DNA from: Yuukianura sp. NJ FZ-2021
Taxonomy: Eukaryota
Length of the DNA stretch: 64,000 nt
Reading direction: 5' to 3'
Assembly: GCA_046563655.1 (NCBI GenBank)
Contig: CM102283.1
Location: forward strand, 6,696,001-6,760,000
Positions 40,348-47,400 of the stretch are shown here, one piece after another; position 1 is the stretch's first letter, and each line of letters begins with the position of its first letter. The position numbers and the translations under genes were made by a program. The notes beneath the pieces are model-generated. The model searched no databases, had not been told where the DNA came from, and saw nothing but the letters and a program-made list of their open reading frames with translations.

Positions 40348-41346
40348 TTACTGAGTAGAACATACTGCTGAATTAAGTTCATTACTTGAGCCGTGACCTT
40401 GACCCTGGGTACCTTCTCGTCTCAATGCTGCTGCTTGCGATGCTGTCACGGGTACTGGTCCAGCAGGGGTATGTGGAGAGGGTACTGGTGACGGAAGTTT
40501 GGGTGTCAGCAGAGCTTGACCCAGTCCGAATCCATGGGGATCACGGATACGATTCCTCCCGTCGGGATTCGCAAAGTACATTGCAGAAGTTGTAAAGCAC
40601 GTCTGAACCTAAACAAAATAGTTAAGGTTTAGCAGACTTGTTTAACATTAATGAACAATTATACTTGGAAGTATTTTTACAGAAGTATCAGCTTACATTC
40701 TCTCCAGACTTGGCAGAGACGATGAATGACAGAGGAATGTCGAATTCCTGTTTGAATCTTGTGTGATTGTCCAAACGTACTGTTCGGAGATGCTCCAAAT
40801 CTGCCTTTGATCCGACCAGACCTACAGCCACTTTGGACAAATCGATTTGATGGACTTGGAGCAGTTTGATCCAAGTCCGGAGTTCATTGATTGATGTCAT
40901 GTTGGTCACGTCGTAAGTCAGCAGAAGAATCTAAAAGTTCAAACAAATACTTTTTCATATTTTCTAAGTTTAAGAAACACTTTTTGAATTGATGTTTATA
41001 AAAAAAATTTACGTCTATTCCCGAATTGAAATAAACTCCAAGCATTTTGGACTCAATTGCCAATCCTCCAATGTCCAGTATAATTAGCGTAGCAGTGCCG
41101 TGTGGCCGGACTGTAATTCTTCTCGAAAAGAAGTCCACTCCCAGCGTAGGATTGTATGGATTTCCTTGGAATCCATTTTCAACAAAACGTTTTACAATGC
41201 AAGACTAAAAAATAATTAACATTTCAAAATTTCAAAAGCAAAACATATAAGTATAACGTGCTTCAGAATTCAGAAAAATCGCAAACCTTCCCACTACCAG
41301 CACCACCAACAACAGCTATCCGAATTTGGCGACCTTCAAATTCCAT
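40348..41346 (-). CDS. RAB28: Rab28-like small GTPase
   Basis: GGAGSGKS, YNPTLGVDFF, LDIGGLAIESKML (Rab28-type DIGG), YDVTN, GSKADLEHLRTV, VSAKSGENV, C-terminal CaaX-like SAVCSTQ*; 4 exons. Confidence 0.85.
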
Positions 41347-41921
41347 ACTTCAACACAGAATACGATTTGTGTTTATGTTATTTTTATCAAAATTTTGAAT
41401 TTAACACGAACATAAACTTTAAAAAATAAAATTTCTGTTGACACATTTTGGAAAATTAGTCTCTTCAGCTGGCTATGTGTTGCTTGGTTTCAGAAAAGCA
41501 CAACAGAAATTTGATTCTTCAACAGAAATTGCGCAGACTTTAACTAGAAGTTGAAAAAAAAAAGTTGGGTAAGCTGCAGGGACAAAGAAAGTTGAGTTAA
41601 AAAAAGTTGGAGACAAAGTTTTTTTTTTAGAATTTATTGAAACCCCCTGTAAATATTATATTTACAAACTAAATCAACCCATATCCAATAATGTAGTAAG
41701 TATAAGTAATCTGGTAAGTAATTAAAATTACGATTGAAGTATTGTCCAAATTATACTCAATTCATTAAACAGAAAAGTTTTAAAAGTTAAAAAGAACATT
41801 AACGGGAACACTCAAACACAAATATGAAATCTCAAATGAATCATTCATCAAAAATTAAATTGTCAATCATACTGAAACTGAAATTCTCCAAGAAAAAAAA
41901 AGAAAGTGGGGGAGGCAAAAT

Positions 41922-43931
41922 CTAATTTAAAGCAGAAATCTGGTAAATCCTATTGTTAAGTTCCAATGTCTCCCGGACAAAGTCTCCATCGAAAACAGCT
42001 CGTCCAATGTCATTCAACTTCTGAATCAGTTTTCCCTTCTTCAATCCCATTTGGTACTCACAAATGTCAATCTCCTCCGATTCTGCAAAGTTCTTCACAA
42101 TGTCCATCTTCAAAGTGCGTCTCTGCTTCCCTTGACCCATGTAGAAGATCGTCACTTTCGGATTTTCCTGGAAGAAATTCAAAAAATCCAAAGTGAAAAA
42201 ACATGAAAACCGAAACAATTTTTCAAAATTTTCAAAATTCCAATTTCCTAAACTTACCGGAGTAAGACAAAAGTAGAGACCAGCTAAAATCTTTCCTTTG
42301 GGATCTCGGCGCAAAATCGTTTTGAATTCGTAAACCAAATTTCGACGTTCCGTGACCTCCACGGCGGATCGAAAATGTCTTCCGCAGAAAATCAAGCTCT
42401 TGTGGGCCTCACGACGTCCTTTCTTTGTTTCAGAAACGAACCAAGAGATGTAATTTTCATTCAGCATCGTGTACTCGTACTCTTTCTGCGCAGGTCCTTC
42501 CTCACCTTGGACAAAGAGCCCTGAAAATATAAAAATATACAAACATGTTTAGCATTAGTGGTTGTAACATCGAAAATAACTTATTAGCCGACATATTGTT
42601 ATAATGACAATGTTTAGGTTAGGTTGACATACCAGTGTGAGGGTACTTGCCATCCTCCATGACAGTGACAGGTCGAGAGATGTGATAACCCGGATCCAGA
42701 ATCATAAAGCCATTTCGATCTCCAATCCGAATTCGGAGACAAGCCAAGACGTGTTCTTTCTCGACAGTTTTCTGACACGGCGGCACATTTCCAGCGTAGG
42801 TTTCAGCCATTTCGATTTCCTATACAAAGGAAATTAAGTTTTTCAAAAAAAAGAATGCAAAATTTTTGAAATAAAAAGTTAAATATTTTCAGAACGAACC
42901 TCCTCGCAAGACACGATGTAAAATTTGTTAGCCGCGACATGTTTCAGAGGCAGAAATGAATTGATCTGCTGAATAATCTCATATGCAAGGCCGACGCAAG
43001 TGTAATGACGCGGCGTAATCGGTGGCCTGTAACGTCGATAGAACGAATCCAGGGAGTCTATCTTGGATTTCTTAAATGCTTGGTAAAATCTGCAACGAAT
43101 CAAAAATTTCAATAATTTTCAAAAGTTTTCAAAATTTCAAGAAAACTAACTAAGGAAATTAGCCTTACCTAAGGAAATTGTCCACACTGTTGTATTTGTG
43201 TCCAGCAACACTATGCTGCGACACAAACTCCACAAAGCCAGCAAATTCTTCATATTTAGTCACTTCAGAAAATTCCACAACTTCTGGCGGTTGGCTCTCC
43301 CAGACTGGATACGGAAGAGAGGAACCCAGAGGCCAAAGGTCATCCGGATTCTGCCCAACCCTCGTCACATGACTAGGTCCATAAGGAGTTAGCCCATGAT
43401 TGTTCCAAGATCCACTACGAACTAGTCCATTGTGGCTATTCTGACTGTGATCATGAAGAATTGAGGGGGATGTGCTGGCGATGTGCTGTTCTTCGGAAGT
43501 ATCATAGTTGGGGGGTGCTAGATAACTGGAGAGTTGGAGCCAAGGATCCGTAACCAGAGGAGGCAGGCCATTTTCCGAAGTCGTGACGAGTCAGCTTGGC
43601 CATTCACAAGCCCAGCGTCCATTCCAAGAGGCAGCGTTAATTGCATTTTCAGTTTCTTCACCAAACAGTAATCCTTTTTCTTGTTCACGTATTTTCCACA
43701 AATCTAAAGAAAAGTGACAAATTACATGAATTACTTCAACAAATTACATGAACATTAATTATCAGTAACTTTACAGCGATTAACCTTAACTTAAACACTA
43801 TCTCGACTCCATTTTGGAGTATCTCAACTCTGTTCCAAAAAAAATCTTCCAAAATTCGTTAAAAAAAGTCAGAAATTTCTTAGTTTCTGTTAAAAAAGAT
43901 TTTTTTTTAGAATTTCTTGACATTTACCCAT
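41922..43931 (-). CDS. Uncharacterised protein with Cys-His-Asp (NAT/transglutaminase-like) motifs; in-frame UGA at 43591-43593
   Basis: ATG G|GTAAAT at 43931-43928, acceptor TTTCTTTAG|AT at 43703, then exons to stop at 41922. Motifs HYTCVGLAYE, KEHVL, ILDPGYH. The 5' structure is uncertain because of the internal UGA. Confidence 0.7.
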
Positions 43932-44432
43932 AAAACGTTTGTAAACCGTTTGATCTGAAGTGTCAATTTTTGAAATTGACTTGAGCGCTGAGTTGAACAG
44001 AAGCTTTGAGCGTAGTTCAGGGAAACTTCAAATTCTATGAAGCAACTTTTACTTCAAGAATTCAAAAACGTAGATTCAAAAAACGTAAAGGTCGTTGACA
44101 CGAGAAGTGGCGGGGTAAGCCGAAGTTTGTTTCAAAGTTGAACCTAAACCGGAACAACTGAAACGTTTAAAAATCGTTTAATTTGTAACTGTTCGGACGG
44201 ACAAGGGGAACACTGTCAAACGTGTTCTTTATAGAGTCAATAAAAGTAACTGTTTAAACTTGAACCCTATATTTTCCATTGTTGAAGTACTTTGAGTTAC
44301 AGTAGAAGAAACTAGAATATTCGCACAAGGTTTGCAAAAACTAAAGACTGGATTGACGAGTAGTTTGTGCTTCGGTCTAGCGAAGTACAGTGGATGCTCA
44401 ATGGTGATGCTCAAAATAAAACAGGAGTGACG

Positions 44433-44470
44433 AACTGAGGAAAGGAGTGTCGACTGCTCAAATATTTATA
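44433..44470 (-). promoter_or_regulatory. TATA box + arthropod initiator for the 41.9-43.9 kb gene
   Basis: Minus strand TATAAATA (44470-44463) followed ~30 nt later by TCAGTT (44438-44433). Confidence 0.6.
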
Positions 44471-47400
44471 GACGGAGGGGTATGGCTGTGGTAAGGCGTC
44501 TATTAATATCCGCAGCCAATTACCAGTCACCAGGGAACTTGGAAATTGGCATGACTTTAGTGTCAACGTGTCTTTCGATGACAATGGGAAGTATCATGAC
44601 CTATGACGCTTAGATTTAAAATTTTATGTCCCATTGTTCCAGAATGTGCTGGCATCATTGGGAAATCAATAAGCAAATAAAGTGACATGGGGAATTTTGT
44701 AGTACTTGTCAAGTTAGGAAACTTTTTTTTGCAAAACTGATTTCCATTGCACAAGGAAAACTAAGTTTTTCATGTGGGCGTTGCATGGTGTGGTTTTGGC
44801 GTGGGCCTTGGTAGAATTCCGTGAAAGTTAATTTAGATTAGTCAATTTGGCGTTGCCTAACCTAGTTAATAGCTAACCACAAAAGTCGGGTAGATTCGTT
44901 GAGTATAATTTTTATTTTGTGATGTATAATTTTAATTACGTACTTCTCCGTAGCATGATTTTGGTGGGTGTCATTGATTTCAGTAAGAAATTTTCCAGAT
45001 TGTTCGATTCAAATTTTTTTTTAGAAATATTTTAGTGAAATTTTTAGAAATTTGATGCTAAGCTTTACCATAACCTTTCATACAAAGCTTTGTGTGTGGT
45101 TCATGTATTGATCGCTGGTTAAATATTTAGTCTTTGGATCGATGCAAATGCCAAATTTAGGAACAAGGAAGATAATTTTGAGTTTTGACCTCCATTTTTT
45201 GCGCAAGAGCTAAATTTTTTTTTAAGCTGAGCTTAATTTTTTTAAAGTTTGCCAAATGTGGAGATTCAATTCATTAACGCTATTAAGCCTTGAATGACTC
45301 TTTTGACAAACTGCAAATTTTTATGCGATGATGTTGCTAACGTCGCAAAAATGTCGTGAAATGGCCTTCCAGTACTTTTCCATCATACTTTGGAGTGGCC
45401 TTGGAACCCTGAACATCCTGTGCCATAACCATAACCACATCTTCGTAATTCCATTTAATGTCCAAACCTAAGTATGCGTCCTTCATCATTCTGTGTATTT
45501 CTGGATGCTTCAGGAAATTACGTAGTTGGAGGAAAAAGTTATGGAAAATTTCCACGTGCCTGGTGCATACGCAGAATTAAGGTGTGAAAGCATAAGTGGT
45601 TAATGAAATAACAATGACACCTTAAATGATTAATGACATCTAACAGCAGCAAAGTCCTACGATAGACATTATTTTATAGAAATCTGTGACTACATTTAAG
45701 CACAAATTTAACAAAATGCATCCAGGATTAGCAACATCAATCCAGTGCTTGAATTGCAGGATTAACTTGGCACACGTTGCACATACATGTGGATTAACAT
45801 ACACATGTATTCCACATGTTTTTTTAAGTAATTTTAATTTTTGCAGAAAAATAGGTTTGAGCTTAGGGATTGGGCACATTTGTATTCAGATTTTCTAATG
45901 TACAGCATGTCCCGAAATCCTTGTAATCTCAATCTCAACATGTTAGCTTAAGTAGTCTTAGCTTAAGTAGGTCAAAGATCAACTCAAATTTTATTGTACT
46001 TTGCACATGTACATTCATAAATTTGCAAGTTAACTATAATTGCTTACCCATAAAAAGATGTCTTGAAACAGGAGTTGAGTTGTGAGGAGAGAAAGCGAGG
46101 TGCGAACTTTCTCCCAAAAACACGAATGTGTTGCTCTCAGCACGGAAATTACTTCAAAATCTGCAATTTACATAATTGTGTGAATTTTAGAAAAATTTTG
46201 TCGTTACATAATTTACAACATCAAGACTAACATTTTTAGTACTAAAGTAAAATTGCTAATCTCATCAAATTGGGCATGGAAGAAATTGGAGTTCTGATGA
46301 AGCTGAAACCAACTTTTTGATTTTGTTTTGTTATTTCGGGTCTATCATTTCGTTGCTTCCGGTAATAACCAAAATGAAGTCGTAAACAGGATATTATGGT
46401 TAACAATAGAAACGAAAATACTAAAGAGTTGATGACCTTTGCCCCTTTCCATAGGAAACAATTTTCATTTCCTTATCCATAAGGAAGCAATTCGTCACGC
46501 TTTGAAACTCATGACCCCATAAACTCTCACACGCTTATACTAAAAGTTCAAGCGATTAAATTTTGCTTACCAGGCTTGTGTTGCTAAAAGTTAGTAAATA
46601 TAGAACGCTGAACTTTGAGTCTGTTTTGCAAAAGAGTTAAAAATAGAATCGCACGACACGATTCTAATTTGTTCCTTAACGCTTAACTTAATGAGTCCAA
46701 TCGCACTTATTGAAAATTTCACAATTGTTTTCCAAATTCAAATTGGCTTTTAAAAGTTCCACGTCCACTAAAATTGGGATTTTGCAATTACTAGTTCTTT
46801 TCATAGATTTCACAAAATGTAACATTGTTTCCACTGTGTGGAAAACAATTTCACAATGCAATGTCGAAATTTGATGAATGTCGGACTTAAATGATTCGTT
46901 TTTGAAACGTTTGAAGATTTTCACCAACTTTGGGAAATTTAAAATTAATCAATTGTTAATCGATTAAGTTGACCTTTGCAAATTTTTGTATTTTTTTTTA
47001 AACTTTTCGATTCAATCTGTTAAGATATTCTGGGAACATAAATTGAAGCCTTATGGTTTAGTGTTCGTGCTGATCTGATGAATGACGATTTCAGTGCTGC
47101 TGTTGGTGCATGAGGCACGGGATTTTTTTGAATGCGGTGACGAACGCTCCCGAAAGTTCTGAGAACCCGGGTATTTTGCCGGATGTTCATCTTTTGGTTA
47201 GCGATGTGGTCTATGACGTTCGCTACTCCCCTGGCATTGGTTGTTGGAAGCCGGGAGATGATTTTGTTCCGGTGTGAAGTGAGTCATCATGCATATCTCC
47301 CCTAGGATCCAACACAAGTGCCCTTGAAACCTAACCGAGCTTCAGCGTACAGCCTCCGTCCCTTCCGGTGGGGGAAAGCTCCACTTCCTCTTGGTTTCAG

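Follow-up and report, generated by a model that had tools for sequence, protein, structure and literature searches.

An in-frame UGA conserved in a predicted acetyltransferase-like gene of Yuukianura sp., and its possible programmed readthrough

The window analysed here is a stretch of 64,000 nucleotides from the genome of Yuukianura sp. NJ FZ-2021 (contig CM102283.1, positions 6,696,001 to 6,760,000), and positions are those of the window unless another sequence is named. Its minus strand carries a gene of six exons, the first of them proposed, whose product is predicted to be a distant relative of the arylamine N-acetyltransferases (NATs) and whose open reading frame (ORF) is interrupted by TGA at codon 39. 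A stop occupies the homologous place in related species, directly after a near-invariant peptide, and from the comparison of these sequences we lean, by a small measure, towards a conserved, programmed UGA readthrough on which the whole NAT-fold enzyme would depend. An earlier note on this DNA, made from its letters, had drawn attention to the in-frame TGA, its AGC-UGA-C context, the acceptor at 43703, the ATG G and the frame open on both sides, all of which are read in the sequence; its coordinates describe the features as we find them, except that the lower bound given, 43168, is one base off, the last base of the exon being 43169.

The gene and its product

The introns are short and AT-rich, with acceptors of the TTTCAG type, as read from the sequence, and these splice signals have a nematode-like look. 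When the proposed ATG G exon is included, the six exons total 1425 nt (475 codons), and the exon junctions agree with those of P0153, a spliced cDNA-like fragment that is about 88% identical. The features of the gene are as follows.

43928..43931, minus strand: putative first coding exon, ATG G, with GTAAAT (43927 on) as its donor.
43704..43927, minus strand: intron of 224 nt, 26% G+C, ending in tctttAG (ttttcAG in a variant haplotype); from the sequence and DNA contigs.
43594..43703, minus strand: pre-stop part, (M)DLWKIREQEKGLLFGEETENAINAASWNGRWACEWPS, of 38 codons including the proposed first exon, ending in RW[A/V]CEWPS; from translation and homologues.
43591..43593, minus strand: in-frame TGA, codon 39, followed by CTC (Leu), in the context AGC-TGA-CTC; from the sequence, DNA contigs and L001, a related locus described below.
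43169..43590, minus strand: remainder of the exon past the stop, with a variable Ser/Thr/Pro-rich linker and then the motifs WP..LPYPVW and YEEFAGFVEFVSQ..HKYN..NF, with no Met; from translation and codon comparison.
42900..43089, minus strand: exon with the putative catalytic Cys (HYTCVGLAYE); from the sequence and codon comparison.
42633..42819, minus strand: exon with EKEH (His) and LDPGYH (Asp), containing the first in-frame ATG at 42810-42808; junctions fit P0153.
42258..42520, minus strand: exon D (GLFVQGEEG...ERRNLVYEFK...LTP); from the sequence and homologues.
41922..42167, minus strand: last exon, ending at the TAG at 41924-41922; from the sequence and homologues.
43518..43607, minus strand: feature of an alternative reading, a 90-nt in-frame GT..AG segment (CTT/GTGAAT ... 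GTTATCTAG/CA) enclosing the TGA, which when unspliced codes for CEWPS, the stop and LVTTSENGLPPLVTDPWLQLSSYL.

The acceptor tctttAG at 43705-43704 sets the beginning of the main exon at 43703, and apart from the TGA the frame is open from 43701 to the donor, GT at 43168-43167; a second AG is present at 43519-43518. An AG/AT acceptor is implied at the homologous codon in L001, P0154, P0155, P0157 and P0163. Without splicing, the frame runs upstream from 43703 to a stop at 43746-43744 with no ATG on the way, and a one-codon first exon, ATG G, fits the sequence as the start of coding. Its donor (match 6/8) ties for best, it is among the top three of 27 phase-compatible ATG..GT candidates between 43704 and 45200, and with its 224-nt intron it is by far the nearest of the 27 within 1.5 kb. 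Trans-splicing of SL1 at 43703 would bring no AUG.

Pfam has no family for the window's exons, nor for the homologues P0001, P0008 and P0009, and a sequence profile search of PDB gave nothing relevant. With the last two exons as query, a full HMMER scan gave 155 proteins at E ≤ 0.001, and those that are named are 'uncharacterized' insect proteins of beetle, fly, cricket and weevil. The AlphaFold model of P0001 has a predicted local distance difference test score (pLDDT) of 93.7, with residues 1-12 below 50, and a Foldseek search with it gave 24 matches at E ≤ 0.001; all 17 of the matches listed are arylamine N-acetyltransferase chains, with probabilities of 0.99-1.00, TM-scores of 0.32-0.54 and identities of 8-11%. 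Three residues, C105, H160 and D183 in P0001 numbering, are nearly invariant (at least 90% in a 49-member alignment) and stand in NAT order. Going by this model, the encoded enzyme of about 473 residues is predicted to belong to a distant NAT-fold family outside PF00797 with a putative Cys-His-Asp set. It is like the arylamine N-acetyltransferases (PF00797; 4nv7, 1w6f, 1e2t) in predicted fold and in Cys-His-Asp order, but lacks a sequence match to them and is longer at the C-terminus by a helical part of about 100 residues.

The stop codon and its conservation

The TGA at 43593-43591 is real, and an error of the consensus is ruled out because DNA contigs of three runs (X1, X2 and X3) carry it, although all three are from one sample, possibly the assembly's own source, and are not independent. 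The X3 contig (record 22) covers 43545-43705 with 0 differences at a word depth of 300, the X1 contig (record 6) covers 43385-43705 with 1 difference whose position is not displayed, and the X2 contig (record 13) spans 43165-43752 with 12 differences, none of them at 43591-43593, so that a variant haplotype also keeps the TGA. In contigs from a further run, X5 (organism B), the stop region lies outside the coverage. The suggestion that the TGA might be a nonsense allele or a sequencing error is thus refuted by its presence in these contigs, together with the stop at the same place in other taxa described below.

The X1 and X2 contigs also differ from the assembly at 43706 (A>G), 43709 (G>A), 43714 and 43716; the first two of these turn tctttag into ttttcag on the coding strand, and therefore the acceptor at 43703 is kept in both haplotypes. 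For parts of the locus (42126-42329, 42500-42656 and 43736-43952), the runs of this sample also contain a second version that is about 87% identical, with 24 differences over 190 bases in one instance. Its source could be a divergent haplotype, a paralogue or another, related organism present in the sample. In one contig of low depth, 43761-43903 of the upstream intron is skipped.

Whether orthologues have the UGA was a check proposed in the earlier note, and TGA is indeed present in one other DNA sequence and, judged from two gene calls, on a second contig. The first is L001, a locus in a genomic metagenome contig of a related species and the sole one recovered by a contig scan with a two-row alignment; a scan with a three-row alignment gave no usable conserved stretch. 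L001 has an acceptor, tgtttcag/AT, followed by DLRKSFEEQEKGLLFGEETGNAFGSNFRNNRWACEWPS and by TGA at its positions 180-182, after which 210 open codons without Met lead to ENFIR/gtaatt and then to the FYRAFKKSKIDS exon. Its database product, P0156, has W at the TGA of the DNA, and therefore some gene callers used a code in which TGA is Trp. The second came from a search with the window's pre-stop peptide, which found two short ORFs, P0154 and P0155, that end exactly at ...RWACEWPS. A second gene call on the 1749-nt contig of P0155, P0164, has W where P0155 stops, and that stop would therefore be TGA. A profile search added P0163, which also ends at CEWPS, and P0157 and P0158, which read ...CEWPS-W-L.... 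P0166 is a further W-read sequence, and its relatives P0161 and P0165 start at the codon that is Leu in P0166.

The homologous place thus holds TGA in the window, in L001 and in the P0155/P0164 contig, an unspecified stop in P0154 and P0163, and W in P0157, P0158 and P0166. The pre-stop peptide is found in P0154, P0155/P0164, P0157, P0158, P0163 and P0166 as well as in the window and L001, so that RW[A/V]CEWPS followed by a stop or W is common to eight distinct sequences, with Leu as the next residue in 6/6 of those showing it. Judged from these sequences, selection has maintained the UGA in a clade to which these related species belong.

Coding constraint was estimated by codon comparison of the window with L001, as the ratio of the proportions of non-synonymous and synonymous differences (pN/pS). 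The 36 codons compared before the stop give 0.25, with 25 identical residues of which 9 have synonymous changes (pS is 0.78, which is saturated); the exon of the catalytic Cys gives 0.24, the part with the WP motif 0.28 and the accepted variable linker 0.80. A beetle homologue, P0009, has LPIGET, ten residues and GRWGCEWPR-LTDP within one uninterrupted ORF, a pattern matching LLFGEET, eleven residues and GRWACEWPS-stop-L in the window; it is the only carrier of CEWP among 153 collected proteins. Between the stop and Y[LI]A[PS][PS], the frame is kept and free of stops in 6/6 taxa, with spacers of 22, 21, 26, 20, 20 and 35 codons, insertions and deletions of whole codons, and a retained peptide motif, [RW][LIH][QRN]..Y[LI]A. 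Two of these six taxa, L001 and the P0155 contig, were found regardless of an open frame past the stop. At the level of sequence comparison, this shows the parts before and after the stop to be under coding selection in one frame and to have been ancestrally one ORF. The linker after the stop contains an acidic tract, (D/E)DDGGDDQDEESDS, in L001 (418-500), P0157, P0159, P0161, P0162 and P0166, which the shorter linker of the window lacks.

In the window there is no in-frame ATG after the stop until 42810-42808. The statement that the next in-frame Met lies downstream of the putative catalytic Cys holds, since this codon is past the Cys of HYTCVGL in the preceding exon. Across six taxa, the exon part after the stop has 0 Met in 1115 residues, against 27 in 2199 residues of the same region in 18 other family members; 13.7 would be expected, and for independent taxa, a condition that holds only in part, the probability of none is about 1e-6. 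Out-of-frame ATGs are present in this region, 9 in the window and 12 in L001. The purging of in-frame AUGs agrees with a gate that re-initiation after the 38-codon ORF could not bypass.

Spliced cDNA-like ORFs of the family (P0001/P0151/P0152, and P0160) begin with L-I-[TS], aligned to the Leu that follows the stop, and contain no Met ahead of residue 194-195. The first residue is M in one source and L in the other, which suggests that a TTG directly after the stop was taken as the start. The position at which these ORFs start suggests that the UGA sits in the mature mRNA.

A different ATG, in the +1 frame at 43646-43644 (minus strand), opens an ORF of 42 codons closed by the TAG at the 43518 acceptor, and in L001 (about 127-252) an ATG at the homologous AATGC opens one of 41 codons that runs to the same TAG; this ORF is probably a by-product of conserved nucleotides. 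Were the transcript trans-spliced at the 43703 acceptor, the AUG of this ORF would come first. As a start for the enzyme we rejected it after analysis by hand, finding no kept donor that leads into the main frame.

Upstream of the gene, a TATAAATA box is present at 44463-44472 (minus strand), about 530 bases from the proposed ATG, and a 16-codon ATG ORF at 44279 lies between them. The neighbouring downstream gene (about 40350-41346, minus strand) begins MEFEGRQIRIAVVGGAGSGKS..., has several short introns and, on a reading of its sequence, resembles a small P-loop GTPase; this putative GTPase gene starts about 580 bases past the stop of the acetyltransferase-like gene.

Readthrough and the alternatives to it

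Programmed readthrough acting as a throttle on expression was one of five options listed in the earlier note, and of these it appears the best supported by the sequences compared here. Translation would begin at the AUG of the tiny upstream exon, and the ribosome would make the conserved peptide ...EQEKGLLFGEE...RWACEWPS before meeting UGA-Leu. The majority of ribosomes presumably terminate at this point, and some would decode the UGA with a near-cognate tRNA to yield the whole enzyme bearing the N-terminal peptide. There is no in-frame AUG for more than 200 codons past the stop, so that re-initiation would offer no way round the gate. The octapeptide before the stop, present in all eight sequences, may set or regulate the rate of readthrough, which is a speculative role. 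That ribosomes pass the UGA at all we infer from the pattern of conservation.

Several observations weigh against readthrough. The W of P0157, P0158 and P0166 could be encoded by a true TGG, and three of the six taxa with an in-frame continuation came to light because a caller had translated past the stop, so that their ascertainment is biased. Between the stop and YLAPP the stretch has a pN/pS of 0.88, no better than neutral (the accepted linker has 0.80), a figure that also suits removal of this stretch by splicing, and the best nucleotide alignment of the window with L001 directly past the stop needs a 1-nt indel. RNA folding downstream of the UGA is no better than that of shuffled sequences (z-scores of -0.30 to +1.60). 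We also only infer that P0001 and P0160 lie after a stop. The context UGA-CUC-G is present in 2/2 DNA sequences, and the leaky UGA-C context recognized previously stands to that extent, but the base after the stop is apparently T (TTG) in these two cDNA-like relatives. Finally, a frame-keeping GT..AG pair that brackets the TGA is kept at homologous places in the window (90 nt) and in L001 (166-252, 87 nt).

This last point is the foundation of the alternative that survives best, a splice bypass, which we nevertheless regard as unlikely. The segment 43607-43518 (GTGAAT...TTATCTAG) would be an in-frame, exon-like intron, or the 43518 acceptor would be used directly from the first exon, in either case giving an mRNA without the UGA; the products would be ...NGRWA/SPPNYD... 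or MAPPNYD..., and the retained form would give only the 38-residue peptide. The acceptor, TTATCTAG/CACCCCC, is the same in L001, and the donor, GTGA[A/G]T, lies inside the Cys-Glu codons and is the better in L001 (GTGAGT). Synonymous sites near both would-be splice sites are somewhat quiet, with 3 of 12 degenerate codons changed by a hand count, and TAG acceptors do occur in this gene (tgtatag, tctttag). The acceptor at 43518, proposed earlier as a weaker phase-compatible site, is kept in L001 along with a donor, but both sites fall within peptide motifs that are conserved, and the segment looks like an exon. Chance alone places 34 such pairs around the TGA in the window and 37 in L001; just one of them is kept in both, and since that pair is inside two conserved peptide motifs, constraint on the peptide explains its conservation equally well.

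The composition and conservation of the segment also argue against its removal. It has 53-54% G+C, compared with 19-26% in the four accepted introns, and CEWPS, which splicing would place in the intron, does not vary among the eight sequences, the differences there between the window and L001 being synonymous only. The segment is in frame and free of stops in 6/6 taxa, with six spacer lengths, five of them different, and the cDNA-like P0001 and P0160 keep residues that follow the stop and lack the Y[LI]A site. No protein joining the N-terminal peptide directly to the later part was found in a first protein search with the exon, which covered longer lengths only (none of 190 candidates), or among 11 matches from 4044 candidates. 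Exitrons, reportedly described by Marquez and colleagues in 2015, are said to be exon-like GT..AG segments, with lengths that are multiples of three, inside coding exons. The segment is like them in its GT..AG ends, its multiple-of-three length and its location in a coding exon. As defined in the relevant part of one source, however, exitrons are without a stop codon (PMC10985678), and this segment holds the TGA.

In another alternative, the conserved peptide would be the product of an upstream ORF (uORF) that ends at the UGA, with the enzyme started separately by a non-AUG codon or by re-initiation. The eight residues that end at the stop are the best conserved, a pattern known from stalling uORFs; the window has one ACG and two CTG codons past the stop, and in P0001 and P0160 a TTG apparently follows the stop directly. 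Initiation at a CUG or ACG after a short uORF, as had been put forward, is nevertheless disfavoured. The two ORFs adjoin in a single frame in each of the six taxa where both are visible, they are a single ORF in the beetle P0009, and L001 has no near-cognate codon for more than 100 codons past the stop, no near-cognate start being kept at one place. The absence of Met from the 1115 residues after the stop likewise gives no separate start codon, and altogether we consider a separately started enzyme very improbable.

Still less probable is selenocysteine at the UGA, in which case a flexible arm at the N-terminus would carry a CxxxxU motif. Selenoproteins are usually recognized by an in-frame UGA that is conserved along with its flanks and followed by a continuing ORF, as here, but Rfam shows no selenocysteine insertion sequence (SECIS) at E up to 10 on either strand of 41300-44600, a search that concerns the 3' untranslated region of the window only, and at the gathering score it has nothing in the whole window. 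The sole match to a SECIS pattern in the 3' region folds at -8 kcal/mol and does not have AUGA and GA opposed. P0009, the only homologue with the motif among the 153, has Arg/Leu (CEWPR-LTD) and not Cys at or beside the aligned place, which is also in a disordered, fast-changing region (pLDDT <50, P0001 residues 1-12). The earlier suggestion of selenocysteine is accordingly not upheld.

Equally remote are A-to-I editing of UGA to UGG in the RNA, which would fit the W of the callers and be invisible in DNA but for which there is no stable duplex around the UGA, and a slowly decaying pseudogene, whose look in a single genome a near-start stop does have but which is excluded by the selection figures (a stop common to taxa with saturated synonymous sites, yet catalytic exons with pN/pS of 0.24-0.28) and by the lack of a second stop or frameshift in 1115 codons.

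Relation to known systems

The readthrough favoured here can be compared with several known systems. In viral gag-pol (the UAG of murine leukaemia virus, MuLV) and alphavirus nsP3-UGA-nsP4, the catalytic protein is made only via readthrough, at a low ratio of long to short product, and a UGA followed by C is typical of alphavirus readthrough. Viral readthrough needs a downstream pseudoknot or other structure, however, and none was found at the UGA of the window.

Stalling peptides are known from the fungal arginine attenuator peptide, uORF2 of cytomegalovirus (CMV) UL4 and AZIN1 uCC. Such uORFs are like the window in having a short first ORF conserved most strongly in the residues just ahead of its stop, a hint that the nascent chain may act on the terminating ribosome. 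What they control is a separate main ORF that begins at a start codon of its own, whereas in the window there is no such start codon, and one frame that was apparently one ancestral ORF.

Among cellular genes, those of Drosophila that undergo readthrough, such as kelch and headcase, resemble the case proposed here in that a cellular stop is passed by a fraction of ribosomes and is recognized by coding conservation after the stop. They differ in that readthrough adds a C-terminal extension to a functional protein, while in the window the first ORF has 38 codons and the whole enzyme lies past the stop. Sets of readthrough genes obtained from phylogenetics and ribosome profiling are presented in part of Dunn et al. 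(2013; PMC3840789).

The nearest parallel to the proposed readthrough is the non-selenocysteine SPS1-UGA of Hymenoptera. According to the portion of Mariotti et al. (2015; PMC4561486) devoted to it, SPS1-UGA of Hymenoptera and Paraneoptera undergoes non-selenocysteine readthrough of a conserved in-frame UGA, and it is like the gene described here in being an animal enzyme gene with such a codon, no SECIS and a conserved downstream ORF. The same account has the SPS1 codon becoming Arg in other insect lineages, and P0009, the beetle homologue, has Arg at or beside the place of the UGA. The SPS1 UGA is there derived from the selenocysteine codon of a catalytic site and is provided with strong flanking stem-loops and an enhancing hexanucleotide (PMC4561486). 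The UGA of the window, in contrast, is at codon 39 in a predicted disordered N-terminal arm, with no structure found, and what is conserved is the peptide that precedes it.

In the position of the stop, in having no flanking structure and in the near-invariant peptide that ends at the stop, the proposed readthrough would be novel relative to known cases. A literature search with supplementary files left out gave no paper with the motif strings, and nothing relevant on conserved N-terminal readthrough in nematodes. A bolder proposal, which we put forward as doubtful, is that RWACEWPS in the ribosome tunnel decides between termination and readthrough, so that a clade of small animals would make a NAT-fold enzyme only via regulated readthrough, guarded by the purging of AUGs; perhaps such a tunnel-peptide gate would respond to a small molecule related to the substrate of the enzyme.

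Known cellular readthrough mostly adds C-terminal tails to working proteins, and here a whole catalytic domain would depend on the passing of a stop 38 codons into the ORF. If true, this would be a translational gate in a cellular animal gene, similar to a stalling uORF but fused in frame to the protein that it controls. Its confirmation would provide a natural, compact and testable model for how a nascent peptide and the context of a stop set readthrough in animals, and would explain why members of the family are cut short or overlooked by gene predictors. The analysis also brings to notice an uncharacterised family of ecdysozoan enzymes with a predicted NAT-like fold.

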